The notes beneath the pieces are model-generated. The model was not told the origin of the DNA. It worked only from the letters and a program-made list of their open reading frames with translations, and ran no database searches. Shown piece by piece: positions 11,070 to 33,539 of a stretch of 60,083 nucleotides of DNA (the stretch's first letter is position 1; the number at the start of each line of letters is the position of its first letter). The translations under genes and the position numbers were made by a program. Origin of the DNA: Rhodothermales bacterium. GTDB lineage: Bacteria; Bacteroidota; Rhodothermia; Rhodothermales; Bin80. Where the stretch lies: NCBI GenBank assembly GCA_012271205.1, contig JAAXGT010000091.1, positions 1 through 60,083 of the forward strand, in the 5' to 3' direction.

Positions 11070-11163
11070 GTTATGTACACGTCCGCTGTGCAAGGGAATC
11101 CGGTTCGCTACACTTGTCCTCTCCGTTGACAATTTCCTTTTTCCTATCAATCAGAATCACAGC

Positions 11164-13165: not shown

Positions 13166-13179
13166 GAGGTGTTCAAGAG

Positions 13180-13680: not shown

Positions 13681-13715
13681 GCCAAGAAGTCTCTAATCCC
13701 AAGGAACCAAAGCTA

Positions 13716-15008
13716 ATGGGTCTTGCCGTGCTGGTACTTGTGGCGAGCTTTCTGATCCTGCTCCTGCTGGATGTACCAGTCGCATACTGTCTGGGTATGG
13801 CTACGCTGCTTACAATGCTGGTGGCCGTGGATTTCGTCCCCGCATCCAGTACGACTGCGCAGCGCATAGCCACTGGACTTGACAGCTTTACCCTGCTTGC
13901 TATCCCATTCTTCATCCTGGCGGGCAATCTAATGGGCCGAGGAGGAATTGCCCGTCGCCTCATTGCCCTCGCTCGTGCCCTGATCGGAGCACTTCCGGGA
14001 GGCCTGGCGCTGGTGAATATCATTGCGTGTATGCTATTTGGTGCTATCTCGGGCTCCGGTATCGCAGCGGCGGCAGCGATCGGGTCCGTGATGCACCCCA
14101 AGATGGTTGATGGCGGCTATGCGCCCGGCTTCAGCACTGCGGTAAATGTTTCATCCGCAACTACAGGGCTGCTCATTCCGCCGAGCAATGTACTAATCGT
14201 TTACTCCCTTGCCAGCGGCACCGTGTCGGTCGCAGCACTGTTCATAGCCGGATACCTCCCGGGCATCCTCATTGGCGGACTGCTAATGACGGTAACAGCC
14301 TACGTGGCACACAAGAAGGGATATGGCAAAGGCGAACGGGTTCCGTTGCGCGAAGTACTCAGGCACCTCGTGCACGCACTGCCGAGCCTCACCTTGGTGG
14401 TGGTCGTCATCGGAGGCATAGTAGCGGGCATCTTCACTGCAACCGAAGCTGCGGCTATTGCCGTGCTCTATGCGCTTGTGCTCGTATTAATCTATCGCGA
14501 GGTGCGTATTCGAGAGCTGAAGGACATCCTGCTCAATAGTGTGACGACCACCGCCGTGGTGATGCTACTCATCGGTACGTCTCTGGCCCTGTCCTGGGTG
14601 CTGTCTTTTGAGGACATTCCACAAGACATAGCGGGATCATTGGTGGCGTTAAGCAACAACAAGATTGCCGTGCTTCTGATCATAAATGCCCTCCTGCTTA
14701 TGGTGGGCACGTTCATGGATATGACCCCGGCGATACTGATATTTACGCCTATTTTTCTGCCTATAGTCACGGGGCTCGGTGTAGATCCGCTCCATTTCGG
14801 AATATTGATGGTGGCCAACCTTTGCATCGGACTCTGTACACCCCCTGTTGGTACGGTTCTCTTCGCAGGTGCCGGGATCTCCAAGGTTCCTGTGCCAAAA
14901 GTTGTCCGACCACTGGCACCTCTTTATATAGCCATGCTGATCGCGCTCCTGCTGATCACGTTTGTTCCAGCAATTACGCTGGTCATTCCGCGAGTTTTCG
15001 GGTTTTAA
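13716..15008 (+). CDS. dctM: TRAP transporter large permease
   Basis: LLAIPFFILAG, FGAISGS, LIPPS, GIFTATEA, GLCTPPVG. Confidence 0.95.
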   Translation: MGLAVLVLVASFLILLLLDVPVAYCLGMATLLTMLVAVDFVPASSTTAQRIATGLDSFTLLAIPFFILAGNLMGRGGIARRLIALARALIGALPGGLALVNIIACMLFGAISGSGIAAAAAIGSVMHPKMVDGGYAPGFSTAVNVSSATTGLLIPPSNVLIVYSLASGTVSVAALFIAGYLPGILIGGLLMTVTAYVAHKKGYGKGERVPLREVLRHLVHALPSLTLVVVVIGGIVAGIFTATEAAAIAVLYALVLVLIYREVRIRELKDILLNSVTTTAVVMLLIGTSLALSWVLSFEDIPQDIAGSLVALSNNKIAVLLIINALLLMVGTFMDMTPAILIFTPIFLPIVTGLGVDPLHFGILMVANLCIGLCTPPVGTVLFAGAGISKVPVPKVVRPLAPLYIAMLIALLLITFVPAITLVIPRVFGF

Positions 15009-15152
15009 CGGTGACTTGCGAATGAGTCATGTGTCGACTGGCCGCTTGAGTATGCTGCTTCCAGCTCATTGCCGGGCAAGGCACAGTACTTTTCTGATGT
15101 GTGAACTTCCACTAAGTCAGCTTCCTTGATTTCGCATTTCACTCCTCCCTTC

Positions 15153-15920
15153 ATGACCAAGCGTTTCAAGTCCGTAGGCAAATCCCAACTTCTCAGTCAT
15201 TCTGTAGAGGAGGCCATTGAAAAATCAATTCGAAAAGGGCATCTCGTGCCGGGGATGAAGCTCTCATCAGAGCTTGAGCTGTGTGAGCAGTTCGGTGTTA
15301 GCCGGACCGTTCTGCGGGAAGCACTCCGGATGCTGTCCGGACGGGGGCTAATTCGAATCGAGAAAGGCCGCGGCATCTTTGTTTCGCAGCTTTCCGCCGA
15401 AACCGTGACTACTCCGATGGAGATGTATCTTCATCAGCATTGGGGAGATTTTCGATCCCTCGACATTATCCGCGCCCGGCAGCTTATCGAGCCGCCCATT
15501 GCGGCCGAAGCGGCCATACACCATACGCAAGACGATGCCGACAGGCTGCAGCGGGACCTTGAAAACATGAAGGGTTGGAGTGGAGGAAGCGACGAGCTGG
15601 CGGAACTGGATCTCGCCTTCCATCGCCACATCGCGGTTGCTTCCGGTAACGCGGTCGTTCCACTGCTGATAGCGCCTATTCATGCGCTTATGCCGCAGAT
15701 CAAGTCTTCGATTCACAAGGTGGTCGAGGACGCCCGATACTCAGCCATTGAATGGCACAGCCGTATTCTCGAGGCCATTCTCAAACGCGCCCCGGAAGAT
15801 GCCCGCACAAACATGGAGTACCACTTGGTTGAATCAGAAAGGCATATAGCTCAAATGTTGTCCGCCCAGTCGGCACTCGAAACACGTGACGCTCTCAAAG
15901 AGGTTGTTGCACGCCCATAG
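15153..15920 (+). CDS. FadR/GntR-family transcriptional regulator
   Basis: wHTH 'SELELCEQFGVSRTVLREAL' plus FCD domain 'DLAFH..IA.ASGN'. Confidence 0.92.
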   Translation: MTKRFKSVGKSQLLSHSVEEAIEKSIRKGHLVPGMKLSSELELCEQFGVSRTVLREALRMLSGRGLIRIEKGRGIFVSQLSAETVTTPMEMYLHQHWGDFRSLDIIRARQLIEPPIAAEAAIHHTQDDADRLQRDLENMKGWSGGSDELAELDLAFHRHIAVASGNAVVPLLIAPIHALMPQIKSSIHKVVEDARYSAIEWHSRILEAILKRAPEDARTNMEYHLVESERHIAQMLSAQSALETRDALKEVVARP

Positions 15921-18732: not shown

Positions 18733-20465
18733 TGCCGAACCATAGTTTGAGTTAGGCGAATCCCGTCCACGCCGAGCACGGCCAGATAAGCGCCTGAGGC
18801 AAGGCCGGATGCATTAAACTTGGCAGAATGAACTCCTGCATTTCTGGTCTCGTTGAGCAGCACCGCAACTTCGCGACCCAAGAGGTCATAGATCGTCAAC
18901 TGCACATGGCTTGGCCGCTCGAGTTCAAAGCGAATGGTTGCGGCGTTTCGGAACGGGTTGGGATACGTCGACAGTTCCACGGCAAGCTTTTCGGGCGTCG
19001 GAGAAACCGACTGCAAAATAAGGCCCATGTAGGACGGGCCCACATCTTGTGCTAAGAGCGGTCGGTAGAGGATGGGGGATGAGGCGAGTTCATCTGCTCC
19101 AATGTCTGGAGCGCTGTCCCGGTTTTGACCATCGATGTCCTGGGTTGCGAAGTCTATTTCCATAGCGGCTCCGATTGCCGGACTCGCAGAAGCTGGACGC
19201 CACAGGTCTGCCCCAAAAGTGAGTTCTGGATCTGTGGTCGAGATGCCACCAACTTGCGGAATGCCAAGAGGCGCGCCATGGAATATGTTGGACTGGTAAG
19301 TGACGTTAAGCGGTTCATCTTCATAGTTGATGATTGGACCGCTGGCTGTTACCACCAGATTGTTTGCAATTAAGAGACTGTCTGGGGCGAGTGACTGTTC
19401 CGAGCTTTTTCCGGCTCCCACTGCAAATGCTTCCTCGACATTCACGAAGGTGTTAAAAGCAATCACAGCATTCCTGACTTGGAAATACCGGTTTAGCGGG
19501 GAGTTAGGCACGCCGTTGACGATTGCCAGCGCAGCGCGGTAATCCGTGCCTTCGAGATCTTGGAAATAGTTGTTGTAGACCCTGTGCCGTTCACCAATGA
19601 TGCGAACGCCGCCGGCTCCATGCTTGCCTTCCCCAAGAAAAAAATTGCCGTATACGTGGGCCTTATTGCCATGCCGCAGCGTGAGCACCCCCGATGAACG
19701 GCGAAAAGTATTGTGCCGGTAGGTGTTATTGCCGCTCTTGTTCGAGATAATTTCAATCTCTCCGTCACATTCCTCGAAGAGATTGTGTTCCACCGTCACG
19801 TTTGCATCCTGCATGGAGCGACTGCTGGTCCCGATCCTGAGTGACTCACCGCCATTTTTGCCCAATTCCGGGCGGTGACCGAAATAGTTGTGGTCAATCT
19901 GGTGCCAGACGGGACGGTCATTGGGTGGATCGCGCAGCCAGACGACCACCGTTGCCCCATCGTGATCCTTTCCGGCGAAATGGCAATGATCTACGCGGTT
20001 ATGTGTGCCATAAACGGAGACCCATTTATACTCCGTCAAACGATCCGGAGGGTTATAGTCGGTTATGGCGCAATTGGTAAGTCTGCTGCGATTGGTCAGG
20101 CGTGAGGACGAGCGCCGGAATTCGATAACGTGTCCGCTACGCAGTTCACCTCCGTCAAACCACAGTCCATCTACCTTGAGATACGTTCCACCTATGCGCA
20201 AGCGGGAGGCGCCATTAAGTACTACCTGTCCGGGAGTTTCGGCACGCAGCGTAATAGTATCCCCTTCGGCGCCCTCGGCAAAGAACGAAATCACCACATT
20301 GGTCCAAGTGCCATTGGCCATTACTACAGTATCGCCCGGACCGGAGGCGGCAATAGCAGCAGAGAGCTCCTGAGGGGTACGGGCTATGCGCTCCACCTGA
20401 GCACGGGCTGCAGATGGAAGTAACAGGCACAACAGGAGTCCGGCCCAGCTTTGCCGGCACGTCAT
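18729..20465 (-). CDS. PL6 alginate lyase with T9SS type A CTD
   Basis: NGGESLRIG, EIISNKS, LTLRHG; CTD 'YPNPF...IYDLLGREV...LASGAY'. Confidence 0.92.
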   Translation of the reverse strand: MTCRQSWAGLLLCLLLPSAARAQVERIARTPQELSAAIAASGPGDTVVMANGTWTNVVISFFAEGAEGDTITLRAETPGQVVLNGASRLRIGGTYLKVDGLWFDGGELRSGHVIEFRRSSSRLTNRSRLTNCAITDYNPPDRLTEYKWVSVYGTHNRVDHCHFAGKDHDGATVVVWLRDPPNDRPVWHQIDHNYFGHRPELGKNGGESLRIGTSSRSMQDANVTVEHNLFEECDGEIEIISNKSGNNTYRHNTFRRSSGVLTLRHGNKAHVYGNFFLGEGKHGAGGVRIIGERHRVYNNYFQDLEGTDYRAALAIVNGVPNSPLNRYFQVRNAVIAFNTFVNVEEAFAVGAGKSSEQSLAPDSLLIANNLVVTASGPIINYEDEPLNVTYQSNIFHGAPLGIPQVGGISTTDPELTFGADLWRPASASPAIGAAMEIDFATQDIDGQNRDSAPDIGADELASSPILYRPLLAQDVGPSYMGLILQSVSPTPEKLAVELSTYPNPFRNAATIRFELERPSHVQLTIYDLLGREVAVLLNETRNAGVHSAKFNASGLASGAYLAVLGVDGIRLTQTMVRH

Positions 20466-20486
20466 ATGTCTGCGTAGGGCAGTGGC

Positions 20487-22856
20487 TTATTTCGTGAGCA
20501 CGAGCGTCCGCCAGTTGCTGCGGCCGTCCACCGTAAGCCGGTAGAAGTAGGTGCCCGGCGCGCGGTGCTGCATCGAAACAGTAACGATGTATTCACCGGC
20601 GGCCTGGTGCTCATCTTTCAGGCTGGCGACCCTTCGGCCGAGCACGTCGTACAGCTCCAGGGTCACATGGCCGTCATGCTCCATTCTGTATGGGATTCTG
20701 GTTTCCGTTCGGAACGGATTCGGATAGTTCTGACCCAGAATGAATCCAGACGCTTCCGGGACAATCTCGTCCACCACAGCTGTTCGCTCGGTGATCCATC
20801 GCATGTCTCCTATTCCAAGCCCGTCCGAACCGGCTGTCACGAGTGGAGAGCTTGCCGAAAGTGAGAAATCGAGATTGTCGGGATCGGCGAATTCCGGATC
20901 AATGTCATACATCATCTCAGCTTTGGCGTTGCCAAGCAACCGGACCGGCGCAACCATGAAGGTGTCACTGTAGGTGATGCGGGAATCGCCCTCAAGGCTT
21001 ATGCTCCAATCCGCATCTTCCTTGCTGTTGGCTATGATGCTGTGTGTGATCTGTGCATTCTGGATACCCCGGGGCCAAATGGCGCGTCCGTTATTGTAGC
21101 CACAGTTGTAGCAGGTCAGGTTTTTAACGACGAATTCAGGCTCCGGCGTGGCCGGATCAGAGTCCCCAGCATAGACATAAATAGCGGACCGATTCGTGTT
21201 GGCAATCGTGGTGTTGGACACCTCGAAATGCTCTACGTTGTAATAACCCAGGTTTGGGCGCTCACTCGATTCATCCTTGATCCGGATGCCTTCTTTCCCA
21301 CTGTTATTCAGAATCGAATTCCGGAAAATCACCGAGTCAACCAAGGTCTCGGTATACTGACGCAGGAAATTACCGTCACTGCCGGCGACCACATCATGTA
21401 TGTAGCTGTCGGTAACCTTGAGTACGGTCGATGCTTTTACCGAGTCGCTCCCACTGTGACGGATGCGCAACAAGTACTTGGCATTCAAATCTGTGCCGGC
21501 CTGACCATCAATTTCGATTCTATCGAGATGCAGGGAATTGAAAATGTCAAAAACGACTCGCGTGCTTTCATCCGCTTCGTTATTCTTGATCACTGGTCTT
21601 TCGGCCAGGCCGGCAGCCGCCCGAATCGTCAGTGGCACTCGGACATTGATGTCACTGTCGTTGAGGTAGTCTCCCCCTGAGTCTGTCAGTTCGATAATGT
21701 CACCGGCCGAGGCCGCATCCACGGCGTCCATCAGTGTGTTTTGACCGGCGGCCACTTGGTGAACCGTTCCGCCTATTCCAGCAGGCCACCACCGCGGGTC
21801 ACCGAGTGTAGCGCCGTCCATGCCGGCTCCGATAAGAGGGCTGCCACTCATGAGCGTAAAGTCGCCGTTGTCTGGATCGGTAAACATTGGATCCACAGCG
21901 TACAGGCTTTCAATCGTGGGATCGCCCCGGTCCCCGGTCCAGTCTCCGTCATCGCTGACATTAAGCGTATCACTGAAAGCCAATACCGCCCCGGGCACGA
22001 GCCAGGGGGCCCCCAGTGTCTTTCCGGTTGCGTTGACGATGTCGTAATTGTTGACCATGATCGTATTGGTCACCTTGGCGTTTTCGACATCCTTAAGGTT
22101 GATCAGATAGTGGCCGGCATTGTGGATGGTCACGTGATCGATCACGACTTCGGGGCCTGGCGTATTCGGATCCTCATCACCACCGTACACACTAATGGCA
22201 TCGTTTTTGATATCCCAGAATGTTGAGTTCGAGATCTCAAAATACTTCACATTGAAGAAGCCGAAGCCGGGTCGCTCATTGTCCTCATCTCGAACGCGGA
22301 TGGCTTCCTTTCCGGTGTTTTTTACCATCGTGTTACGAATGATGATAGAGTCCGCCATCGTGTCATAGTAGGCGCGGAAAGCATTGCCGTCGCTGCCGTG
22401 AACGAAGTCGTGGAAATAGCAGTCGAGTATCTTCAGCACGTATCCATCCTTAAGATTGTCCTGATCGCTGCCACTGCTGTTGCGAATCCCGTATTTGGTT
22501 TGTTCGCCCTGGTGTGCAAGTCCGTCAAATTCAAGCCCGATAAGCGTGAGATCATTGTACATGCGGATGATGTCCTTCGTGCCGTCAGTCCCGTTGTTGG
22601 TAAGCACGGGGCGATTCATCAGTCCGGGGGCTGCCATAATCGTGAGCGGCAATTCCAGGCGCAGTTCATCGTCATTCTGGTATTGACCGCCATCGGTAGT
22701 CAGAACCAGAGTGTCGCCCGGCATGGCCTGTGATATGGCATCCAGCAGCGTATTCTGACCAGCTTCAACGTCTATGCGTTGCTGGGCAAAGGTGGGACGC
22801 GCACCCGCAATCAAGACGGCGGCAATGAGCAACAGGAATGTAGTGGACGTTCTCAT
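20487..22856 (-). CDS. tandem beta-helix (DUF5123/DUF4957-like) protein with T9SS CTD
   Basis: Two ~335 aa internal repeats, each starting 'AGQNTL.DA' and ending 'DP.F.DPDN.DF.L...SPL..AG.DG...GD.RW'; CTD 'QNYPNPF...YDVLGRRV...GTYFYRL'. Confidence 0.85.
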   Translation of the reverse strand: MRTSTTFLLLIAAVLIAGARPTFAQQRIDVEAGQNTLLDAISQAMPGDTLVLTTDGGQYQNDDELRLELPLTIMAAPGLMNRPVLTNNGTDGTKDIIRMYNDLTLIGLEFDGLAHQGEQTKYGIRNSSGSDQDNLKDGYVLKILDCYFHDFVHGSDGNAFRAYYDTMADSIIIRNTMVKNTGKEAIRVRDEDNERPGFGFFNVKYFEISNSTFWDIKNDAISVYGGDEDPNTPGPEVVIDHVTIHNAGHYLINLKDVENAKVTNTIMVNNYDIVNATGKTLGAPWLVPGAVLAFSDTLNVSDDGDWTGDRGDPTIESLYAVDPMFTDPDNGDFTLMSGSPLIGAGMDGATLGDPRWWPAGIGGTVHQVAAGQNTLMDAVDAASAGDIIELTDSGGDYLNDSDINVRVPLTIRAAAGLAERPVIKNNEADESTRVVFDIFNSLHLDRIEIDGQAGTDLNAKYLLRIRHSGSDSVKASTVLKVTDSYIHDVVAGSDGNFLRQYTETLVDSVIFRNSILNNSGKEGIRIKDESSERPNLGYYNVEHFEVSNTTIANTNRSAIYVYAGDSDPATPEPEFVVKNLTCYNCGYNNGRAIWPRGIQNAQITHSIIANSKEDADWSISLEGDSRITYSDTFMVAPVRLLGNAKAEMMYDIDPEFADPDNLDFSLSASSPLVTAGSDGLGIGDMRWITERTAVVDEIVPEASGFILGQNYPNPFRTETRIPYRMEHDGHVTLELYDVLGRRVASLKDEHQAAGEYIVTVSMQHRAPGTYFYRLTVDGRSNWRTLVLTK

Positions 22857-22902
22857 GGTGCAAATCGGGTTTAGGTGGGGGGAGCAACTCTAGTTCCGTG
22901 AC

Positions 22903-22920
22903 AAGTATGATGTAATACAA
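22903..22920. promoter_or_regulatory. candidate FadR/GntR operator
   Basis: Imperfect palindrome GTATGATGTAATAC about 47 bp upstream of the 22856 start; near-copy at 33153. Confidence 0.65.
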
Positions 22921-22953
22921 GTTAGCAGGACGTGGAATATTTTGCAAGCTTCG

Positions 22954-25569
22954 TTAACGCACACGCACAACCCGGCCTTGCACAGTCGAGCCCGCGCTAT
23001 CTGTCCAGCGCAGAATGTATGTGCCCGAAGGAGCATGGGCGCCCGTTGCAGTGCGTCCGTCCCACGTAAGGCGGACTGCTTTAGCACCCGCGGGATGATT
23101 TCCGGAGAGTACTCGTATCTGCTGGCCCAGGAGATTGTACACGATAACCGTGAATGCGCCAGGGTGTTGCACCGGTGCCTCGAGGGTAACAAATTGGTCA
23201 AAGGGGTTGGGATAGGCCTGCAGTAGCACTGCGGGTTCTGGAAGACGTTCCGATTCGAGGCCTGTAGGTTCCAATCCAATCACAATGCTCCCTTGCCTGT
23301 ACGTAAACTGGACGGCCTTCCCATTTACGTGTACCTCGTGTACGGTTCCGGCATCGGGATACGTCACTTCGATCTGGGCGGCCTGCCGGTGTGCAGGTGC
23401 GGCTATATCGAGTCTTCCGGTTGTGCGGGTGTCCAGTGCGAGTGTCACCAGAGATTCAGACGAGAATGCCACATCGCCAGCGGCAAACGAATGAGCCTCC
23501 CGAACGGCAAGCTGCTGCCACGTACCACTGCTTGTGCGCATCCATGCAAACGTGGCATCGGTGGCGAAAGCGTCTAGCGACTGATGTCGCGGTCGTGCCT
23601 GCAGGAAGAAAAAGTCAGACATGTTCGCCCTTGTGAGATTTGCGGCTACGTACGCATCTGTGCTCAGGTCCACGACATCGGGCACCGGAGCATCTATGCG
23701 GGCTGGCAGGAGCAACTGCAAAAACGCGGCCTCCGGGCCCGTCTGAGTCACCTCTACATACCGTTCATATCGCTCGTCCTTGAAGAGGCTGATGTAACCC
23801 GTGGCATGACTAATCTTAGCCAGATCCGGGAATAGAAATGCGTCCAACCTGGCGGCAGAGCCATAGCGGTTTTCAAATGGTTCCCATCTTGCGTAATGGC
23901 CATTCCGTTCAAAGGCACCACGCCCGTGAAGGTAGGCTTTGTACGTGTGTTCCTGCTCTCCCGACACCAGATCGGCCACTACAAAATAGTCTTGGTCAAT
24001 AAACCCTATAGCGCGGCGAAGGCTCGCGTCATTTGGACGAAGGTATCCACTCTCCTTTTCTGCAAACCCGAAAAACGGCGAATCTATTTCGTAGCGGGGG
24101 GGAGGGGTGACATTGTACACGAACGGAGTCTTGAACAGGCTGTCGGTCACAGGAGGATAGCCGTCCGCGGTTACGATGTTGTGTGCCTTGGCAGTCAGGT
24201 ACCAGGATCCGCGCCGGTCATCAGAGAACCCGTTGGGTCCATAACCCGCGTCGGGGACAAGGACCGCATCGTTGCCCGCCATGAAGAAGGATAACTGGTC
24301 CGGGTGATTGTGATTATCAGCTTCAGCAACGCCGTGAAAAAGGAGATATCGATCATCCGGCCCGGACTCCCATTTCTTGCGGAATACAACCTGACCTCCC
24401 CCAAGGAATTGATTCGGAGAGGCTGTTGGAGCAACCGATGGTATGGTACTGTCAAAAAGAATGTATTCGTCGATCTCCCACGTAACATCCACCGTCGCTC
24501 CAGTGTAGTCTTCGTCGACAAGGCGCGTTGTTTCGAAGTTCCACTGACAAATAGCCGCGAAGTCCGTTTCGGGATTAAGCATGGTTGGTACTCCCCTGTA
24601 AGCCGCGGCAACCATGTGCGTAGGGGCAGGCTTCAGGTATGAGTCCTCAATGTTAGGAACTTGACCTCGACCCGTACGCACTCGTATAGGCCACTCAAAT
24701 GCCGGGCGGTAGGTGCTAAACAGGTCGACGCCTGCTACGTTCAGATAGTGCCACAGAAAGGGAATCAGGTTCACGGCATTGTACATCCAGTAATGCCCCC
24801 CTTCGCGATAGATTCCGTCCGCACTGAACTGATACCGGGTGACCGAATTTGCAGCTTCCAGTGCGTGGGAGAGCCAGTCCGCTGCCTGTTCGTGGTCGGA
24901 AAGTGTCAAGGCGGCTGTTCCGATGGCCCAAGCCGGCTTTGAACGGTGATTGTGGGGGCGTGGAGCCAGCCGTTGGCCTACCATCAGGTTGTCACGCAAG
25001 TACTGCGTTTCACCAGCTAGGCGACGCCGAATTTCATTGTTCTGGTCAGGGCTGAGGTGACCGAAGACCCAGTCGTAAGCGGTGGCATAATTCTGTAGCC
25101 ACGTGGCCCGATAGATCTCATCGTAGGGTTTTTCACCGGTCTGTGGCACCCCCTCATAAGCTACCAGCAAGGCCTCAATCGCCTTTTGCAGTGCAGCGGC
25201 ATCTTCTTCCAGCAGCCACCAGAATGCAAGGGTTTTGGCAGCCCTTGGCCGATGATTTTCGTCCAGGTTCAACATATCCTTGTCGATATACCTGAGGGCG
25301 TCCGCCCGGAAGCGTTGCCAAAGCAGGTAATACCTGGACGCCGGATCTTCTTTGCGTGTTCGAAGCGAAGCGACACGGTCCGCGGAGAAAAAAAGTGACG
25401 GATGCTGCTCCGAGACTGGCAATATCGGGGTGGTATCCACGCTGAAGCCCGTATAGGTGTCGTATCTCGGATGCTGTGCCTCCGTGCGAGCAGGCAGGAA
25501 AAATCCGATTAGAAAAAGCTGCCACAACAAGACGATTGGAATGGCCACTCGCCTCCAGGTCGGTATCAT
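22954..25569 (-). CDS. heparinase II/III-like polysaccharide lyase with T9SS/FlgD-Ig-like CTD
   Basis: HPSLFF, PHNH, DGIYREGGHYW, HNHPDQLSF, DAGY and AHN motifs; C-terminal 'AYPNPF...VYNLLGQ...WDGR...SGTY'. Confidence 0.82.
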   Translation of the reverse strand: MIPTWRRVAIPIVLLWQLFLIGFFLPARTEAQHPRYDTYTGFSVDTTPILPVSEQHPSLFFSADRVASLRTRKEDPASRYYLLWQRFRADALRYIDKDMLNLDENHRPRAAKTLAFWWLLEEDAAALQKAIEALLVAYEGVPQTGEKPYDEIYRATWLQNYATAYDWVFGHLSPDQNNEIRRRLAGETQYLRDNLMVGQRLAPRPHNHRSKPAWAIGTAALTLSDHEQAADWLSHALEAANSVTRYQFSADGIYREGGHYWMYNAVNLIPFLWHYLNVAGVDLFSTYRPAFEWPIRVRTGRGQVPNIEDSYLKPAPTHMVAAAYRGVPTMLNPETDFAAICQWNFETTRLVDEDYTGATVDVTWEIDEYILFDSTIPSVAPTASPNQFLGGGQVVFRKKWESGPDDRYLLFHGVAEADNHNHPDQLSFFMAGNDAVLVPDAGYGPNGFSDDRRGSWYLTAKAHNIVTADGYPPVTDSLFKTPFVYNVTPPPRYEIDSPFFGFAEKESGYLRPNDASLRRAIGFIDQDYFVVADLVSGEQEHTYKAYLHGRGAFERNGHYARWEPFENRYGSAARLDAFLFPDLAKISHATGYISLFKDERYERYVEVTQTGPEAAFLQLLLPARIDAPVPDVVDLSTDAYVAANLTRANMSDFFFLQARPRHQSLDAFATDATFAWMRTSSGTWQQLAVREAHSFAAGDVAFSSESLVTLALDTRTTGRLDIAAPAHRQAAQIEVTYPDAGTVHEVHVNGKAVQFTYRQGSIVIGLEPTGLESERLPEPAVLLQAYPNPFDQFVTLEAPVQHPGAFTVIVYNLLGQQIRVLSGNHPAGAKAVRLTWDGRTATGAHAPSGTYILRWTDSAGSTVQGRVVRVR

Positions 25570-25639: not shown

Positions 25640-27043
25640 TTAGAAGCTGTAAGTCACGCCAAAAAGCACATTGTGCTTGCGGATGCGATTGTAGTCCACG
25701 TTGGATTCCCACCTATCCTGGTAACGCAGGCGCTGGAATTCGTACGCGACATCTACTGTGACGAGGGTTAAGTCCTGGCCCAAACCAACGCTGAACGCAT
25801 CGCCGGTCGCGGTTTTTCCAATAAGTCCAAAACCCTCTATCCGAAACGGCTGCGGGTCATGCCGGAAGCCTGCTCGCACGAGCGTGGTACCGCGCAGCTT
25901 CCATTCCATACCCAGGCCTATGCCTTGAATCTTGCCCCAATCCGGTGCTGACTCCTGCCCGGTACCGCTAATATCGAGTGTTTCATAGTTCTGCAGAAAG
26001 TAGTCTGCTGCCAGAACGACCGAAGCGATGGGCCTGAGCGCAATTCCGGCCACTACGCGTGCCGGCAGTCTGATTTTGTCTTCCCCGGCCAGAGAAAAAT
26101 TCGTGCTCCCGGACTCCGATATCTCCACCTGGCCGTTGAGACTGAATGTACGCGTGACATGACTCGGAAGCTGATAGGTGATTCCGGCGCTAAGTATTTG
26201 GTGCTGCCAGAGAATGCCAATTGCTCTACTCCAGCCGCTATAGTCCGACGATCCGTTCCAGTTAGTTAGCCCCTCGGTGACGGTGTGACTGTAATCGTGT
26301 GCATCTTCACGCAACGCAAACATTCCTATTTGGCGGATGTATTGGCGATCCGTGGAATTTCCCCATGACCGTGAAATGCGTATGCCAACGTACAAGCTTT
26401 TCAGCAGCTCGAATCCTGCAGCGGCTGAGAGGGCCTGTATTTGCCCGTTGCGCTCCCGCTCGAAAGCAGACCATTGGACCTCAATTTCCTCGCCGGGCTT
26501 CGGACGCTCGATCGGGTCTGGACGAAACTGGCCGATATAGGGATCCAATACATTGTCGTTCCGATCATAGTCACCGAGCTGTGCAACTTGATGCAGCATG
26601 AGACCTGCAGTAAATCTCCGGTCAGCAATGCTGATTGGAATGGCCCCCCCCAGCGTTGCAAGCTGAAAATTCTGCTGGCTGTGGGTCCAGTCGGGTTCCA
26701 AAAGGGGCTCGCTCCGATAGTCCTCGGGGTCCGAAAAGAAGAGAGAGAGCCCAGCGTAATAGCGATTTGGATTCCAATGCTGCGTTTCAGCCCAGTCCCT
26801 GGACAGCCAGAGACCACCAGCTGAAAGCGCGGGACGCGACAGGCTTGCAAGACTGGCCGGATTAAGAAGAATGGATTCAGGGGAGCCGGCCGTTGCTGCA
26901 AAAGTAGCGCCCATCCCCCGGGCACGAATCGTTGTCAGGTCCTGCCGCTCCAACCCTTGAATAGTAAGAGACTGCATTACCCCCTGTCCGTGGGCCAGGG
27001 GCGCCACCAACAGCAAAAGTATTGGGAGTCGGCGAAGCATCAA
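25640..27043 (-). CDS. outer-membrane beta-barrel, FadL/PorV-like superfamily
   Basis: Signal peptide; 'RARGMG...LLNPASLA' N-terminal motif; alternating beta strands; C-terminal VTYSF. Confidence 0.75.
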   Translation of the reverse strand: MMLRRLPILLLLVAPLAHGQGVMQSLTIQGLERQDLTTIRARGMGATFAATAGSPESILLNPASLASLSRPALSAGGLWLSRDWAETQHWNPNRYYAGLSLFFSDPEDYRSEPLLEPDWTHSQQNFQLATLGGAIPISIADRRFTAGLMLHQVAQLGDYDRNDNVLDPYIGQFRPDPIERPKPGEEIEVQWSAFERERNGQIQALSAAAGFELLKSLYVGIRISRSWGNSTDRQYIRQIGMFALREDAHDYSHTVTEGLTNWNGSSDYSGWSRAIGILWQHQILSAGITYQLPSHVTRTFSLNGQVEISESGSTNFSLAGEDKIRLPARVVAGIALRPIASVVLAADYFLQNYETLDISGTGQESAPDWGKIQGIGLGMEWKLRGTTLVRAGFRHDPQPFRIEGFGLIGKTATGDAFSVGLGQDLTLVTVDVAYEFQRLRYQDRWESNVDYNRIRKHNVLFGVTYSF

Positions 27044-27051
27044 TCCCGGCG

Positions 27052-28050
27052 TTAGTCTCTCGAAAGCAAAAGCCCGAGGCGATGCACTGCTCCAAAGGCC
27101 TCAGTCATGCTACTGTAACTGTAATCAAAACCGAGCCTGACGAAGGCCACCGGCTGCCGGATGCCGCCTCCGAAACTGAATGAAGCGATGTCATAGTTAT
27201 GCTGATAGCCACCCCGCAAGAAAAACCGGTTCAGGAACGCGTACTCCAGCCCCGCAGCCCACTGCTGATCATAATCGTTGGGTTGAATGAGATCGAACGT
27301 GGCCGTAAGTCGATTGGCGTCATGAAGGGGAATCAGTCCGTCGGTTCCGATGACATTTACTGCGCCGCCCAGGCGAAACAGCAGCGGTGGCGGATAGGCA
27401 TCTTCCGCAAAGGATACCGGTGCGCCGAAGTTCATTACGGATGCACCAAGCCGCAGTGAGCGATAACCCGTGTTATATGCCATGCCAAAGTCAAAGAGAA
27501 AGGCACGGGCATCAGCGAGCCAGAGATCCTCACGGGCCATCTTGGCGGTAAGGCCTGCGGCAAAGCGGTCGGTGAAGCCCCGAGCGTAGGTGACTCCAAG
27601 AACCCAGCTGCGGAGCGAGAATGACGAGCCCGTGAGTCCCGGGTTGTAGACCTGCGTGCCTCCCTCGTCTACGAATCCTAATTGATCCACCCGCGTCTCC
27701 TGAAACTCGCCCATGTCGGCCAAATAGAAATGTACGCCTGCATGTCCCCAAGAGCCTAGGGACCGCCCATAGGCCATCCCGTAGTGTGCCGCGTCCAGAA
27801 ACCAGTCCACGCGGTCAAGCGCGAAGCTGTGGCCAGTCGTGCGCACAAGTCCGGCGGGGTTCCAGTACAGGGCGTGTGCTCCTTCTGCTATGGCGCTGGA
27901 GGCCGTGCCCACACCCATAGAACGGGCATCGGGGGCCACGCTGAGAAACTGCATGGAAGATGTTCCCACCTTCTGACCGAGGGCAAGAGACGGAAGCAGG
28001 GCACCCAGTACCACAGCGGCGGCAAATATATTTCTTGGTGGTCCGGTCAT
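27052..28050 (-). CDS. PorV/PorQ-family outer-membrane protein
   Basis: 'KVGTSSMQFLSVAPDARSMGVG...ALYWNPAGL', 'FDFGMAY.TG..SLRLG', 'GLEY...FFLRGGY', 'DYSY...FG.VHR'. Confidence 0.88.
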   Translation of the reverse strand: MTGPPRNIFAAAVVLGALLPSLALGQKVGTSSMQFLSVAPDARSMGVGTASSAIAEGAHALYWNPAGLVRTTGHSFALDRVDWFLDAAHYGMAYGRSLGSWGHAGVHFYLADMGEFQETRVDQLGFVDEGGTQVYNPGLTGSSFSLRSWVLGVTYARGFTDRFAAGLTAKMAREDLWLADARAFLFDFGMAYNTGYRSLRLGASVMNFGAPVSFAEDAYPPPLLFRLGGAVNVIGTDGLIPLHDANRLTATFDLIQPNDYDQQWAAGLEYAFLNRFFLRGGYQHNYDIASFSFGGGIRQPVAFVRLGFDYSYSSMTEAFGAVHRLGLLLSRD

Positions 28051-30290
28051 TTGATTATCACAAACTTGCCCCGGTAGGTGGCCCCATCGGGAGTACGTAC
28101 AACGAAAAAGTAGACGCCCGAAGCGATCTCCTGATCATTGCGTGTTACTTGGAACCAAGCTGTGGAATATTGCGATGCGTCGTGTTCAATCGTATCCACA
28201 AGCTGCCCGCTGTAGGAGTAGATCTCGATAGTGGCCCGTTCGGGCAGCCCGTAAAAGCCGATCTGCTGTGCAGTATTTCCTGCGCCCCCACTTGAAAAGC
28301 CGCTGTCCAGATAAAAGGGGTTGGGTACAGCGTGCACTTCAACCAATTCATCTGCGGGACCGAGGGTTGCAGTTACATAAGAGAGGTTGGTTTTGCCGCT
28401 TTCATGGCCCTGAGCGTCTATTGAAGTCACCGCATACCACTGCGATTCACCGACAGTCGTCTCTGAGTCGATGAATTGGTACAGATCCGCTTCTGTGAGA
28501 TCGGCCGCGCTTCCGACGGGGATTTCTGTGAGCATGCGCCACGGTCCAATTGCAGCCTGCGCGCGGTACACACGGTAGGTGGTAACGGTACCGGTCAGAC
28601 GCGGATGCGTGAAGTTCTCCTGTGCCCGGCCCCAGCGCAAGACCGAGTGTGCTCTGTCGTTGTTTGTGATCGTAACCGCCGGTGCCGGTGGTGGGACAGG
28701 CAGCTGATAAACTCCGTCCCGGGGATTGTCTTCCGGCCAGTAGGGCAGCACGGGTTCATTGCCCGTATAGGCATGATAGGCCATGTCAGCCACATCCTTT
28801 ACTGTCCGCACATCCGAGTTTACGTAGTCCGGATAGCCGTATTCTCCCAGATAGTTTTCAGTGAGCGTCTGACCCGATGACGGATCAATGACCCGGTCCG
28901 AAAAATGCGGGACCTCGTGCCAAGGCATTTGTTCATCGATAACCTCTCCCAAGCCCCCGCCTTCGTCCCACTCCCCCGGTCCCTCAGCTGCTCCGTAGCC
29001 GACCATCTCGGCCAGCGAGAACTCAATCTTATCGCCAGGCTCCAAGATATAGGGACCAAACACGATATGGTGGCCTACCGCCTTGTAAGACTGCCGAAAA
29101 TTGAAGGCCCCGCGTCCGATCCACCGTAGAGAGTCCGGATCTTCCGTGTCGGGCGGTGGCGGAAATACCGTTTCGCGGTAGGGTGTGTACGTGCCACTCC
29201 AGCGCGTGTACGGGACGAGCTTCGGTTTCATCTTGCTTTCGCGCGAGTTCCCGCTCTCGACCTTGTTCATAAACGGCTGCTTCAGTGTGCTGTCGGAGTC
29301 GATCATGCGCTCATTGGACACGCGGGGATCGAGCGCAAAAGTGTTCCCTATGGTGGCCAGGTGATTCCGGTCATAGAAGAGCATCTGAATGCCAGGGGCT
29401 TGGGGTGACATAAGTCCACCGCCCTGCTCTCCCGTTGACGCGTAGGTTGCGAAGTATTTTGGATCAGGCTTGCCTGACGCGGCGAAATCGGAGTCTACTC
29501 CATTGCCAATATTGAGTACATACCGCAACCAGCGATGTCGGTCGAAGTAACCGCGCAAGTCGTTCTTGTACATAAAATCATATTCCCACGTCCCGTACCA
29601 CCGCTGAAATCCCAGCATTGAAGGTGCCACGCCGTAATGGAATCCGATGAGCACTTCGTAGAGCGTTTCATTGTTATTGGCAACGCCGTCCCCATCTGTG
29701 TCGCCAGTGTTTTCGAACGTGTATTCGAATAGGATCAGATCGTCATAATCCGGATAACTCCAGGCGCGGCTTGTGCGCGTGACGGAAATTCCCGTGTTAC
29801 TGCCCCACTGGGCTACAATGATTTCTTCGGCCTCATTGGGATCATAGGCAGGATTGAGCGTGCCGTCTTCCAGCAGCGGGTAGTTCTCTATACGTTCAAT
29901 GGAAATCGGAAAGGAATACACCCCGGCCACTGTGATCGGAATGTGCTGTCCGGACGATCCGCCAAACGAATACAAGCGTTGATCGAGATCGAAAATGTTG
30001 ACCCCGCTGTACGAAGCTGCGATAGAGATCCCGCCCCCGATGATGTTGTGTTGGCCGCTGTACTGCAGCCCGTCTATGGCCGTAGCGGAATAGCCCGGCC
30101 ACTCCATAAGCGGATCCAGAGTGATATCGTGATCGCGGTAGAACCACTTGCGCCCGATTTCACCCGTATTGTAGACCGTCTCATGCAGCATTCCGCGACG
30201 GTGCACCCGTTTGTCTCGCAGGACCTGTGCATTCGCAACCGGCAGCGAAACCGAAACAGTCAGCAAGAGCGCAAGGAATCGGACCGTCAT
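28047..30290 (-). CDS. uncharacterised exported protein with FN3-like domain and T9SS-like CTD
   Basis: Signal peptide with no lipobox; 'PPPAP.V...WG...YRVYRA...YAVTSID..G.ES' (FN3-like); tail 'VPNPF...IYSYSGQLV...ASGVYFFVV...KFVIIK'. Confidence 0.8.
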   Translation of the reverse strand: MTVRFLALLLTVSVSLPVANAQVLRDKRVHRRGMLHETVYNTGEIGRKWFYRDHDITLDPLMEWPGYSATAIDGLQYSGQHNIIGGGISIAASYSGVNIFDLDQRLYSFGGSSGQHIPITVAGVYSFPISIERIENYPLLEDGTLNPAYDPNEAEEIIVAQWGSNTGISVTRTSRAWSYPDYDDLILFEYTFENTGDTDGDGVANNNETLYEVLIGFHYGVAPSMLGFQRWYGTWEYDFMYKNDLRGYFDRHRWLRYVLNIGNGVDSDFAASGKPDPKYFATYASTGEQGGGLMSPQAPGIQMLFYDRNHLATIGNTFALDPRVSNERMIDSDSTLKQPFMNKVESGNSRESKMKPKLVPYTRWSGTYTPYRETVFPPPPDTEDPDSLRWIGRGAFNFRQSYKAVGHHIVFGPYILEPGDKIEFSLAEMVGYGAAEGPGEWDEGGGLGEVIDEQMPWHEVPHFSDRVIDPSSGQTLTENYLGEYGYPDYVNSDVRTVKDVADMAYHAYTGNEPVLPYWPEDNPRDGVYQLPVPPPAPAVTITNNDRAHSVLRWGRAQENFTHPRLTGTVTTYRVYRAQAAIGPWRMLTEIPVGSAADLTEADLYQFIDSETTVGESQWYAVTSIDAQGHESGKTNLSYVTATLGPADELVEVHAVPNPFYLDSGFSSGGAGNTAQQIGFYGLPERATIEIYSYSGQLVDTIEHDASQYSTAWFQVTRNDQEIASGVYFFVVRTPDGATYRGKFVIIK

Positions 30291-30306
30291 ATCTGCGTAC
30301 CGAAAG

Positions 30307-33132
30307 TCACATGTTTACAACAACGCCAAACCGGACTGAACGAGGTCCGTTGTCGAAAATGCGGAAAGTCTGCACGGCAGCCAAGTCCGGATTATTGCTG
30401 TCGGGCAGCGCATATTCGATATCCTGCCCATCCTCATATCGACGCAGCGTCTCGGAGTCCAAAAAGACGCGGTTATAGTCGAATACACGAGTGTTGAACA
30501 GGTTGAACACTTCAGAAAAAACATCCAGTCTCGCTGATCCGACACGGATGCCCTTTGTGATCTTGAGATCCGTGTTGTGCTCCCACGGAGTGCGTTCCGT
30601 GTTCAGTTTGGCGTAATTGTCTCCCAGCAATTCGCTGGGTGTATACGGCCTTCCGCTTCGGCTGTCCTGGAGGAAGTTGATTCTTATGCGTCCCAGCGGA
30701 AAAGTGCCTGCGATTTGCGGCCCCCATCTCTGAGGCAGGTTGAGGCCGGCAATCAGCACCAAGGCATGCCGCCGATCAAAATCCAGCAGAATGTCCCGCG
30801 GGCTGGGGGCTTGAGACTGCTCGTTGTTTTCGTCGACAATCGGACTGCGACCGGTCGGCGTGGAATTCTTGCCGGTCGCAACAGAAAAGTGATAGCGAAC
30901 GGAGCCCGAAATGATACCCCGTCGCTTGTTCAGGCGGAGGCTGAAACCGCGAATATTGGCATAATCCCGATTACCGAGCGTTTCGTACAGGTTGTCGTTC
31001 GCGTCGATGTACACGACGCGTTGGATCAGGTTCTTGACATCCTTGTAATACCCGCTCACATCCAGCGTGAACCCGCGTGAGACACCCAATACCAGTCCGA
31101 CATCGTAGCTCTTTGTTTCTTCCGGCTTGAGGAGCGGGTTCCCGAGGCGTCGCGGCTCGACCGTACCTAGATTTTCGTTGAACAGCGTAGTCCGCCGTCC
31201 GATCAGGCTCTCGAGACCGGGTCGTTTGAGATAGTTGCCGTAGTTCAAGTGGAATACCGCCCGCTCGCTGATCGGAAACGAAAAGCCCAGCCGAGGTTGC
31301 AGACGGGCAATCACGGGCGTATCGGACTTCTCGGCAGATTCCTCATTAATGAGTGCCGGATTGTCGGGATCACGGAAAGGGGAAAAAGTATCGGTGTAAT
31401 ACTTCACGTTCTGGTCGTAGAAATCAAAGCGCAGTCCGACATTGGTGACCATGCCCTCGAATTCCATCTTGTCTTGGATGTACAGGGCGCCTTCGTACGG
31501 TTTGGCTCGATAATACTCCCGAACGGCACTGGACTCGGAAGAGTGATTTAGCCGGTTTTCGACATCAATGTCATACAGGTTGCCCTGGAGGCCCACCTTG
31601 AGCTGGTGACCGTTCGATACCTGGCTGGTAATGAATCCAACGGCGGAATAAGTCCACGACACCTCGTCGAAAAAGTCATCGTCCATCACGCCCGTGCGGA
31701 ATCCGTCTTCCCAGTAAAGCCGCTCCCACACGGACCGGTCCGTGATGTCATCCCGAAAGCGGTCCGGGGCAATCACATCGACTCCTTCGTCGAGTCGCGT
31801 CTGCATTCCGTTCAGGGCCAGTTCATAATAAGTGCGGTCGCTGAGCACATGGGAATAGACCAGGCCCAAGCCCGTGCTTCGGTCAAGAATCTTGTTGGCG
31901 CCAATCACGCGATCATACACCCATCTGTAAAAGCCTCCGGAGGAGTAGCTGAACTCCTGCTGGTAGACGCTGCCGTACATTCCGCTGAGTTTTAGCTTAA
32001 TGCCGGGGGCTGGTTTCAGTACAACATTTCCCATCACCTGTGCTTGCCTGTCGGATTCGGGGGTCGGCAGCAGGGGCCATACGCGATTGAACTGAGTCGC
32101 CACAAACAGGCTGGCTTTCTCGGAAAGGGGGCCGCCGAGCGTGAAATCAACCAGTGCGTCCCAACGGTTGTCATATTCATAGCCGATGTCCCGATGCGTT
32201 CGCCGCCACAGGTCATATGCGAGCTGGGCACCTTCATCGGGATCCACCCGGGAGCCAAAACCACGCCCTACGGCCCCCTGCCACCGCGGTCTGTCGTCGT
32301 TTTCCGGGTCTGGGGACTTCCACCATTCCAAGTTGTCCATCAGGCGTATGTACGGGTTGGAAGCGGGGTCAAACACGCTTCCGCCGAAGTGTTTGTAACC
32401 GGGCACACGCGTTCGGAATTCAGCCCGGCTGCTCCACAAATCACCGCCTTCCTTGGTTGAAATATTGATTACACCACTCATGGCGTTGCCGTATTCAGCC
32501 GAGAATCCACTGGTTATCACCTCAACTTCTTCAACGGCACTCAACATGGGCGTAAAAGAGCGGGAGGAATTGAGGGGGTTGACAATCCCCATGCCAGCCA
32601 ACACGTAAAGCTCCTCGTTGGATCGACCTCCCCTGAAATGGCCATCATTGATTTCGGCTTGGAGCCCGAGTACATCAGACAGGTCGGTTACACCTGCAAT
32701 CTGCTCCACTTCTTCTGGACGAATGATCTCCAGCGTGGCCGTCTGATCGGGTTCGACGTCCGGGCGGACAGCGATTACTAAGAGTTCATCTCCCTCCGTA
32801 GTCGCTTCCTCCAGGACAAAATCAACCGTGGCTGTCCGATTAATGTTGACAATCACTTCGGACTGTGTCACTGTCCGAAAGCCAACAAAGGAGGCCCTTA
32901 AACTGTAGGTGCCGGGCTCGACGTTCAAAATGAAGTATCGGCCGTCATTATCCGTCGAGGCGCCCCGCGTCGTGCCGACAATGACTACGTTAACTCCGAT
33001 CATGGTTACCCCTGATTCATCCGTGACCACACCGGTAATCTTGCCGGACTGAGCACTGGCCGGAGTAGTGTGAAAGAAGTACACGAAAGCCAGGAAGATC
33101 CCGAACACAAAGCCCCAGACCTGCTTATTCAT
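30307..33132 (-). CDS. TonB-dependent receptor with carboxypeptidase-regulatory-like N-domain
   Basis: GKITGVVTD..GVNVVI.GT..GA.TD.DG.Y; plug 'FRGGR..E' and 'ITSGFSAEYGNAMSGVINI.TK'; 'GNP.LKPE.T.SYD.G'; 'VFNLFN'. Start placed at ATG 33132. Confidence 0.93.
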   Translation of the reverse strand: MNKQVWGFVFGIFLAFVYFFHTTPASAQSGKITGVVTDESGVTMIGVNVVIVGTTRGASTDNDGRYFILNVEPGTYSLRASFVGFRTVTQSEVIVNINRTATVDFVLEEATTEGDELLVIAVRPDVEPDQTATLEIIRPEEVEQIAGVTDLSDVLGLQAEINDGHFRGGRSNEELYVLAGMGIVNPLNSSRSFTPMLSAVEEVEVITSGFSAEYGNAMSGVINISTKEGGDLWSSRAEFRTRVPGYKHFGGSVFDPASNPYIRLMDNLEWWKSPDPENDDRPRWQGAVGRGFGSRVDPDEGAQLAYDLWRRTHRDIGYEYDNRWDALVDFTLGGPLSEKASLFVATQFNRVWPLLPTPESDRQAQVMGNVVLKPAPGIKLKLSGMYGSVYQQEFSYSSGGFYRWVYDRVIGANKILDRSTGLGLVYSHVLSDRTYYELALNGMQTRLDEGVDVIAPDRFRDDITDRSVWERLYWEDGFRTGVMDDDFFDEVSWTYSAVGFITSQVSNGHQLKVGLQGNLYDIDVENRLNHSSESSAVREYYRAKPYEGALYIQDKMEFEGMVTNVGLRFDFYDQNVKYYTDTFSPFRDPDNPALINEESAEKSDTPVIARLQPRLGFSFPISERAVFHLNYGNYLKRPGLESLIGRRTTLFNENLGTVEPRRLGNPLLKPEETKSYDVGLVLGVSRGFTLDVSGYYKDVKNLIQRVVYIDANDNLYETLGNRDYANIRGFSLRLNKRRGIISGSVRYHFSVATGKNSTPTGRSPIVDENNEQSQAPSPRDILLDFDRRHALVLIAGLNLPQRWGPQIAGTFPLGRIRINFLQDSRSGRPYTPSELLGDNYAKLNTERTPWEHNTDLKITKGIRVGSARLDVFSEVFNLFNTRVFDYNRVFLDSETLRRYEDGQDIEYALPDSNNPDLAAVQTFRIFDNGPRSVRFGVVVNM

Positions 33133-33151
33133 ATCGGGATCGTGCCATAGA

Positions 33152-33168
33152 TGTAAGATGTCATACAA
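33152..33168. promoter_or_regulatory. candidate FadR/GntR operator
   Basis: TGTAAGATGTCATACAA, an imperfect palindrome about 20 bp upstream of the TBDR start; core is 12/14 identical to the 22905 site. Confidence 0.65.
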
Positions 33169-33539
33169 ATTAGGAGTTTCGGGAGAAAGTTTCAAGCACA
33201 ACCTGTACGCATCGCATTACGCGGGCTTGGCGGAGGGGCGACGTGATTGTCATTATAAGGAAGACGTGCTCGTCCGGTTACCTTTCAAGGTGCTGAAGAT
33301 CCTGTGTGACAATAGGAACCCATACTTGGCCACTCCGTCCCTGGTTCTTCGTCGCGAACTCAACGGGGCCTGATGCAGCCGTGCCAAATCTTGGCCGGGA
33401 GCGGTTTACGATACTGGCCCAGTGATCTGCAGCGGCTGCCCACGCTCCCGGGCCGGTTTACCCTCATCGCTTGCTCTGGCTGTCGGGCTTTCCATACGTA
33501 ACGCGAAGAGAGGGGCATCTCAGGCGGTCGGAATTGGCC

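Follow-up and report, generated by a model that had tools for sequence, protein, structure and literature searches.

A conserved gene set with a TonB-dependent receptor, a protein with a type IX secretion tail and a PorV-like barrel as a candidate outer-membrane uptake module in a Rhodothermales alginate locus

In a 60,083-nucleotide stretch of DNA from a Rhodothermales bacterium (positions 1 to 60,083 of contig JAAXGT010000091.1, assembly GCA_012271205.1; hereafter the window), four consecutive minus-strand genes encode a TonB-dependent receptor, a 747-aa protein with a type IX secretion system (T9SS) tail (hereafter X), a 332-aa barrel of the PorV/PorQ family and a second barrel of 467 aa (Table 1). 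We lean towards the view that these genes make up the uptake machinery of an alginate locus at the outer membrane and that its design differs from that of SusC/SusD. An initial annotation of the window, made from the sequence alone, had proposed a module of the first three genes; this trio proved too small, as the gene for the second barrel follows 8 bp 3′ of the first barrel gene and makes the unit one of four. The spacing along the set is 16 bp, −4 bp and 8 bp, with a further 70 bp to the first lyase gene. The 16 bp from receptor stop to X start follow from the open reading frame (ORF) coordinates, and the ATGA in which the X stop and the barrel start overlap (28047-28050) can be read in the sequence, both as originally described. 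We confirm that the observation is real and strongly non-random, since the gene order is kept, to the extent that the contigs reach, in all 80 related loci that were compared and the layout is therefore not due to chance.

To gather the related loci, one genome of each species was scanned with a degenerate pattern; of the 300 stretches found to encode an X relative, the 80 best were used for synteny counts. These loci belong to Rhodothermales, Ignavibacteriales, Melioribacteraceae, Calditrichota, KSB1 and Neomarinimicrobiota. The four genes lie on the same strand and in the same order in 80 of 80 loci as far as the contig reaches. A receptor orthologue stands directly 5′ of the X gene in 79 of them (the single miss begins 155 bases into its contig), the barrel was found in all 80, and the second barrel was found in 78, both misses being contig ends. 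A homologue of at least one window lyase is present in the flank of 68 of the 80 loci, including 46 of the 57 outside Rhodothermales, and thus the orthologous cassette is tied to alginate-type loci across phyla; the 12 loci without a lyase homologue span 3.3-14 kb. Homologues of the genes on the TRAP, SDR and GntR side of the window are also found in the flanks of many related loci. The synteny of receptor, tailed protein and PorV-like barrel, which had been suggested as a check, is thus kept over several phyla, and the more general form of the trio was present in a further 20 of 20 loci from 20 other genomes (receptor/X/barrel in 19, receptor/barrel/X in one).

The genome to which the window belongs (3.34 Mb in 224 contigs, 92% complete) contains 10 such cassettes per BLAST searches and ORF maps, each with a receptor, a large protein with a similar tail and a PorV-like barrel. 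The X proteins split into a small class, which includes the window X, and a large class of 1100-1300 aa. The window X is a full-length relative of the small class (E 2e-30 against the class profile over 620 columns) and shares with the large class the tail only (E 1.7e-17 over 99 columns). A Pfam scan of the nine paralogous X proteins (660-1303 aa) assigned none of them to a family and yielded two sub-threshold FlgD_ig matches, both in tails. The neighbours of the other cassettes encode a GH16 protein with CBM6, an alpha-amylase-family protein (PF00128) with CBM48, a phosphoesterase and a LamG/LTD protein, each of which has an ordinary T9SS tail. Distance matrices for receptor, barrel and tail across the 10 cassettes are correlated (Mantel r 0.72-0.75, p ≤ 0.001), so that the three components have diversified together.

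A reading in which the trio is a chance adjacency of an ordinary receptor, an ordinary T9SS cargo and the housekeeping porV is refuted by the synteny in 80 of 80 loci, by the 10 paralogous cassettes and by the presence of PorV and PorQ elsewhere in the genome, and we assign it practically no probability. In the PorV scan of the genome, 15 PorV-family matches were obtained, 14 of them over the cut-off (window barrel included). The housekeeping PorV is encoded on contig C67 (288 bits on NF033710, cut-off 250), where its gene adjoins that of PorU (965 bits), and the window barrel scored 27.8 bits in the same scan. PorQ is encoded on contig C209 (230 bits, cut-off 220), PorZ on contig C220 (402 bits, cut-off 260), and SprA is present elsewhere in the genome. 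The possibility that the barrel is the genome's only housekeeping porV, which the initial annotation had named as fatal to its proposal, does not hold, and the barrel as a housekeeping porV was rejected given the separate PorV and PorQ genes.

Some further features of the relatives in this genome were recorded. The large-class X proteins (L094, L095, L097, L098 and L100) carry many invariant Asp and Gly residues in DxDxDG-like runs, resembling calcium-binding repeats, with no Pfam match. In two cassettes, the gene 3′ of the PorV-like barrel does not encode a barrel: one of the two products, from L095:10439-11767 (C214:42438-43766) and L093:7017-8285 (C200), has a PPIase (rotamase) domain and the other is an IPT/TIG plus propeller-like protein. 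The fourth position therefore differs between cassette types. The genes at C206:25298-28825 (L104) encode, in this order, a 527-aa protein whose T9SS tail is weak and two barrels of the PorV family (378 and 304 aa), without a receptor; this set may be a different kind of cargo-plus-private-barrel arrangement.

The receptor gene occupies an ORF of 30307..33201, in which the ATG at 33132 as start codon yields a signal peptide. The protein consists of this signal peptide, a CarboxypepD_reg-like N-terminal domain (PF13620, 68 bits), a plug and a beta-barrel (PF00593, 84.7 bits, cut-off 27). The match to the Plug family PF07715 is weak, at 18.3 bits and under the cut-off of 23.9. With plug and barrel domain, the protein belongs to the TonB-dependent receptors in general. 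A stretch reading ELLVIAV after the N-terminal domain is presumably a TonB-box-like element. On the SusC/RagA model TIGR04056, the receptor reached 76.8 bits against a cut-off of 368, with the match confined to residues 31-146 of the N-terminal domain, and three other genes of the genome reached 617-756 bits; the receptor lies outside the SusC/RagA family. The initial claim that the receptor lacks the SusC signature thus stands as regards this model, and has to be qualified in that the CarboxypepD_reg-like N-terminal domain of SusC is common to both. The receptor does end in FGVVVNM, as was noted, and no special meaning attaches to this ending: among 78 orthologues the last residue varies (F in 47, L in 14, M in 10, Y in 4 and I in 3), so a role for the VVVNM ending was dismissed, the Met being a lineage-specific swap for the usual Phe.

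X begins with a Sec signal peptide that contains no Cys (MTVRFLALLLTVSVSLPVANAQ), and no lipobox-like motif was found among the 109 X-family members checked, which agrees with its initial description as a non-lipoprotein. No Pfam family was matched above threshold, and no SusD match was reported at E ≤ 0.01. Without a SusD match or a lipobox, and with an all-beta sandwich in its model, X falls outside the SusD/RagB proteins. The description of the locus as SusD-less is therefore accurate for the locus and does not extend to the genome, which has 3 true SusC and 2 SusD genes (PF07980 on contigs C206 and C55 only); as these lie elsewhere in the genome, the two designs coexist.

X was modelled by AF2 from an alignment of 109 sequences (pLDDT 91.2, pTM 0.89); an earlier model from 22 sequences (pLDDT 61.8), for which Foldseek gave FN3 tandems only, was set aside. 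The model divides into a sandwich (residues ~22-535), an FN3 domain (531-643, Z 11.3), which bears out the FN3-like domain proposed at first, and a PorZ-like variant of the T9SS type A tail (645-747). Foldseek on the 109-sequence model returned mostly FN3 matches, and the sandwich fold was revealed by VIA-align over all representatives. By this comparison, residues 22-535 of the model strongly resemble the beta-supersandwich, or galactose-mutarotase-like, domains of carbohydrate-active enzymes, namely those beta-sandwich domains of GH15, GH94 and GH65 enzymes that have no catalytic role (Z 15-19.7). The individual matches include dextran dextrinase 9ju0 (Z 19.7, root-mean-square deviation (rmsd) 3.2 over 261 residues), glucoamylase 1lf6 (Z 17.5), several chains of GH94, GH65 and GH116 enzymes (Z 15-17) and the C-terminal sandwiches of the alginate lyases 3a0o (Z 11.8) and 9irq (Z 10.9). 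About half of the 510 residues of the N-terminal region align, so the region would contain large insertions. Judged by the model, the sandwich fold suggests sugar binding. A sequence search of solved structures gave no match for the X family, and the look-alikes of residues 25-540 in the ESM Atlas were unnamed "hypothetical protein" clusters at 0.92-0.94, which are uninformative. The family itself is large, with 6224 representative clusters at E ≤ 0.001 and 2014 at E ≤ 1e-10 among 1.84 billion proteins, and the nearest relatives of the window X gene are from Rhodothermales and Rhodothermaceae (80-89% identity).

X could alternatively be a surface enzyme acting on alginate or its oligomers (a new lyase, an epimerase or a mutarotase-like enzyme), and in that case it may still be anchored by the barrel. 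Aldose 1-epimerases belong to the same fold class (3mwx, 3nre and others, Z 11-12), and X retains 45-49% identity across phyla with many invariant charged or aromatic residues (R32, H36, E63, W64, R172, R175, D181-D184 and E189), as might be expected of an enzyme. However, the structures that X resembles most are sandwich domains without catalytic function, which lie N- or C-terminally in multidomain enzymes, no catalytic-domain family was matched by sequence, and five lyase-like proteins are already encoded at the locus. We consider an enzymatic X quite unlikely and return to X as a candidate sugar-binding protein.

The tail of X contains the VPNPF motif and ends in KFVIIK, as first noted, and it passes the T9SS type A model TIGR04183 (27 bits, cut-off 23); PF18962 was not reported for X at E ≤ 0.01. 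With this match and with T9SS genes in the genome, X belongs to the type A C-terminal domain (CTD) cargo, and its export by this route is predicted on sequence grounds. It does not belong to the type B cargo, as X scored 18.1 bits on PF13585 (cut-off 27) and the barrel 19.8 bits on TIGR03519 (cut-off 90.55). A hidden Markov model (HMM) built from the 11 X tails of this genome gave its own members 94-127 bits, followed by PorU (26.7) and PorZ (22.1), with ordinary tails below 19. At E ≤ 1e-8 this profile has exactly 11 matches in the genome, while TIGR04183 matches 53 places and recovers only 4 of the 11 X tails at E ≤ 0.01. From the other direction, the C-terminal part of the PorZ family model matches the tails of seven X proteins, and residues 645-747 of the X model superpose by VIA-align on the tail of Porphyromonas gingivalis PorZ (5m11_A) with Z 11.3 and an rmsd of 2.6 over 86 residues at 23% identity. 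The cassette tails are a distinct CTD subtype, closest to the tails of PorU and PorZ. Of the 301 genomes sampled within the phylum, 167 matched the X-tail profile, as did 102 of 144 genera; the highest tally in a single genome was at least 16 matches, and one large sampled family had none (0 of 63 genomes).

The divergence of these tails, of which TIGR04183 finds the 4 in 11 given above, might be taken to mean that barrel and tail are a self-contained export or anchor pair in which the barrel inserts or displays X without any T9SS. The window X tail nevertheless passes the TIGR04183 cut-off, and SprA is encoded both here and in each of the 5 module-bearing genomes examined (from KSB1, Neomarinimicrobiota, Calditrichia and Stygiobacter, covering Ignavibacteriota and three other phyla; a small sample with no negative control). 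A T9SS-free pair is thus very improbable, and delivery of X by the T9SS is assumed in what follows.

The tails of PorU and PorZ are reported to remain uncleaved and bound to PorV and PorQ, respectively, and the same authors raise the idea that cognate PorV-like barrels shield a tail from cleavage (PMC10202324). By analogy, the X tail and its private barrel would fit this shielding idea. The 332-aa barrel belongs to the PorV/PorQ family by NF033709 (184.2 bits, cut-off 90, residues 30-329), in line with the PorV-like identity it was first given, and it stays under both equivalog cut-offs (PorQ NF033711, 63 against 220; PorV NF033710, 50 against 250). Among solved structures it has a weak match to PorV (6h3i_F, E 0.005). 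A complex was modelled from residues 26-332 of the barrel (25-row alignment) and residues 536-747 of X, comprising FN3 and tail (22-row alignment). The model scored 0.92 against 0.00 for the best of 3 controls; among solved complexes 58 of 80 attained this mark, as did 2 of 110 mismatched pairs. The runs share at least 97% of contacts, with partner pLDDT of at least 79. The modelled interface is formed on the barrel side by a conserved N-terminal segment (26-38) and loops, and on the X side by the VPNPF region (653-658), 689-698, 720-730 and the last strand (738-747). The tail is thereby predicted to dock on the adjoining barrel. The original suggestion of a private barrel holding the X tail is supported by the tail subtype, by the resemblance of this tail to those of PorU and PorZ, by the co-diversification and by this model.

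The same complex model would equally fit transient binding, and the barrel could be a secretion adaptor or shuttle through the T9SS rather than an anchor, with X released or linked to lipopolysaccharide and independent of the receptor. Type B cargo are reported to need co-encoded PorP/SprF proteins, and PorV to shuttle cargo (PMC10202324); the barrel has a weak match to the PorP/SprF model TIGR03519, at the 19.8 bits noted above. The X tail, however, is nearest to those of PorU and PorZ, the two tails reported as retained, and the strict receptor adjacency in 110 loci would be left unexplained if X acted elsewhere. We regard the adaptor as unlikely and prefer the barrel as an anchor for X.

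The 467-aa barrel matched BamG NF053685 (48.6 bits, cut-off 250), NF033709 (27 bits) and PF03349 (weakly), all sub-threshold, and is thus not a member of the BamG equivalog; a sequence search of solved structures gave no match for it. An HMM built from 72 orthologues found, elsewhere in the genome, PorV-family barrels only (17-40 bits), and these weak matches make the 467-aa barrel a distant member of the same barrel superfamily. Judged by sequence, it is specific to the alginate-type cassette, and it may have some role in the module.

Several points weigh against the uptake module as we propose it. The X-tail HMM was scored on the same 11 tails from which it was built. Solved structures of PorV exist (6h3i, 8gl6 and others), and the complex score may partly mirror likeness to them rather than an affinity particular to these two proteins. 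The Mantel correlation is what would be expected for operons duplicated as units and is no proof of contact. An orphan X gene (C22:3817-7215, L102), which encodes a protein of 1132 aa that is 72% identical to the X of the cassette on contig C208, occurs without receptor or barrel. In the PorV-family tree, the cassette barrels are left unresolved as a clade (18/49 support at deep nodes, 2 changes of the cassette label). The galactose-mutarotase-like fold is also found in enzymes (aldose epimerases), and X could be catalytic. The 467-aa barrel has no part in the proposed mechanism. Finally, one of the 20 general loci has the order receptor/barrel/X, and this sample was taken from the top-scoring X-tail places and is skewed towards the large X class.

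In the mechanism that we propose, X would be exported by Sec and then pass the outer membrane through the T9SS. Its variant tail would be left uncut and plugged into the co-encoded PorV/PorQ-like barrel, as PorZ is in PorQ and PorU in PorV, and the large sugar-binding-type sandwich would thereby be displayed at the surface on its FN3 stalk, beside the receptor. Secreted lyases with ordinary tails would cut alginate, the anchored X would catch the fragments and the receptor would import them; the pathway would end, under GntR control, with a lyase in the periplasm, the TRAP transporter and the SDR enzyme. Retention of the X tail and contact of X with the receptor are inferred here. That X acts as a lid on the receptor and binds alginate, as the initial annotation had it, is likewise an inference, drawn from gene adjacency and predicted fold. 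Our best reading is that the module plays the part taken in Bacteroidia by SusD and the surface glycan-binding lipoproteins, and a glycan-binding role would fit the predicted galactose-mutarotase-like sandwich of X.

The alginate context on which the proposal draws is itself real, with Pfam matches to lyase families, SDR, TRAP and GntR (Table 1). The lyase-like genes 3′ of the second barrel encode an 871-aa heparinase II/III-like protein, a 789-aa beta-helix protein (DUF4957/DUF5123) and 578-aa and 910-aa proteins of the Chondroitinase_B family (PF14592), and 3 of these 4 have ordinary T9SS type A tails. The plus-strand genes beyond them encode a protein with Alginate_lyase and Hepar_II_III_C domains, an SDR enzyme, the TRAP transporter components DctP and DctM and a GntR/FCD regulator.

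Table 1. Genes of the four-gene set and of the adjoining alginate genes, in window coordinates.
Feature	Coordinates	Strand	Details
TonB-dependent receptor	30307..33132	minus	941 aa from ATG at 33132
Protein X	28047..30290	minus	747 aa
PorV/PorQ-family barrel	27052..28050	minus	332 aa
Second barrel, PorV/FadL superfamily	25640..27043	minus	467 aa
Alginate lyase genes 3′ of the second barrel	16000..25569	minus	Pfam and NCBIfam matches
Alginate catabolism and import genes	8868..15920	plus	Pfam matches

Elsewhere in the window, the ~1.9 kb 5′ of the receptor (33202-35152) contains no ORF longer than 132 aa, and a weak DUF4234 match (34500-34898) is the only family match there; in many related loci, unlike in the window, a GntR gene occupies this position upstream of the receptor. 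Between a TPR protein and the alginate genes (6343-8087), the gene for an AAA_21 ATPase (381 aa) stands before that for a DUF4276 protein (221 aa), a pair that looks like a small defence or abortive-infection-type module. An ORF of 1407 aa lies on the minus strand at 47505-51728. No Rfam match was found anywhere in the window.

The same four genes appear to have been drawn before without comment. Figure 2 of a study of the Rhodothermus marinus Alg-PUL (PMC9530828) shows them, with hypA-C, named once in the study, marked in the legend as hypothetical and given no proposed role; the hyp genes are followed by the PL6 lyase gene alyRm1, with alyRm4 and alyRm3 further along. AlyRm3 is an 870-aa heparinase II/III-like protein with a C-terminal sorting domain, and the study characterises the lyases only. 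This is the same cassette as that of the window by names, sizes and order, not by sequence comparison. In a table of the R. marinus xylan locus (PMC6987092), three hypothetical proteins come after a receptor; two of the three are predicted to be attached to the cell via a Por sorting domain, and this set may be another cassette.

One of the closest parallels is SusC/SusD of the polysaccharide utilisation loci of Bacteroidota, in which the gene of a TonB-dependent transporter likewise stands directly before that of a surface protein and the pair is multiplied beside different glycan-degrading enzymes; the window receptor also shares the CarboxypepD_reg-like N-terminal domain of SusC. It differs from SusC in its score on the SusC model (76.8 against 368 bits), and the partner of the receptor is a non-lipoprotein with no SusD or TPR fold that has instead a beta-sandwich, FN3 and a T9SS tail, along with a barrel of its own. 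With PorZ-PorQ and PorU-PorV, the module would share the binding of a T9SS cargo tail to a PorV-family barrel, the modelled X tail being nearest to PorU and PorZ by both HMM and structure. Those pairs are single-copy parts of the secretion machine, whereas the pair of X and barrel occurs 10 times in this genome, each time beside a receptor and within a nutrient locus. The passenger of X, unlike PorZ and PorU, has a sugar-binding-type fold in its model. In SprB-SprF, which involves a type B tail, the genes of cargo and cognate PorV-like barrel are also clustered and an anchoring role has been proposed (PMC10202324); the X tail, however, is a type A variant and its barrel is of the PorV/PorQ family, not PorP/SprF. 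Finally, BamG-BamH of the Bacteroidota BAM complex is described as a FadL-type 14-stranded barrel that serves as a platform for a surface protein (PMC12578637). BamG is the best NCBIfam match of the 467-aa barrel, but that score is far under 250, and the gene of the 467-aa barrel lies in a nutrient locus with no link to bamA.

A module of receptor, T9SS-tail protein and PorV-like barrel was not described in the full-text literature searched (supplements and subscription journals were outside its scope), and a 2026 review of glycoside transporters (PMC13543919) makes no mention of T9SS, type IX, PorV, Rhodotherm or Ignavibacter. We would like to note that the module is two known principles joined in an arrangement not yet described.

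The recurrence of the cassettes suggests a general counterpart of the SusC/SusD pairs and an overlooked route of polysaccharide capture. Outside the class Bacteroidia, polysaccharide utilisation loci are predicted from SusC/SusD pairs, and these cassettes would therefore be missed; in the one genome examined here, there are 10 cassettes against 2 SusD genes. As the cultivated R. marinus has the same cassette in its alginate locus, the idea is directly testable. If it is correct, receptor, X-type tail and PorV-like barrel together would be a marker by which loci for glycan uptake could be found in Rhodothermia, Ignavibacteria, Calditrichota, KSB1 and Marinimicrobia, all of which matter for marine and sediment carbon turnover, and thousands of large hypothetical proteins without a Pfam family would gain a function. 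More tentatively, and as a possibility that we place somewhat short of probable, much of Bacteroidota (minus the one large sampled family), along with Calditrichota, KSB1 and Neomarinimicrobiota, may have a second, so far unrecognised class of outer-membrane machines that capture polysaccharides and other polymers. In each of these, a TonB-dependent transporter would have a T9SS-delivered surface partner held by a private PorV-like barrel via an uncleaved PorZ-type tail, and the machines would be multiplied within each genome and specialised by substrate in the manner of SusC/SusD. The retained-tail anchoring of PorZ-PorQ would then extend from the secretion machine to nutrient capture, and the T9SS would have a direct structural role in nutrient import.

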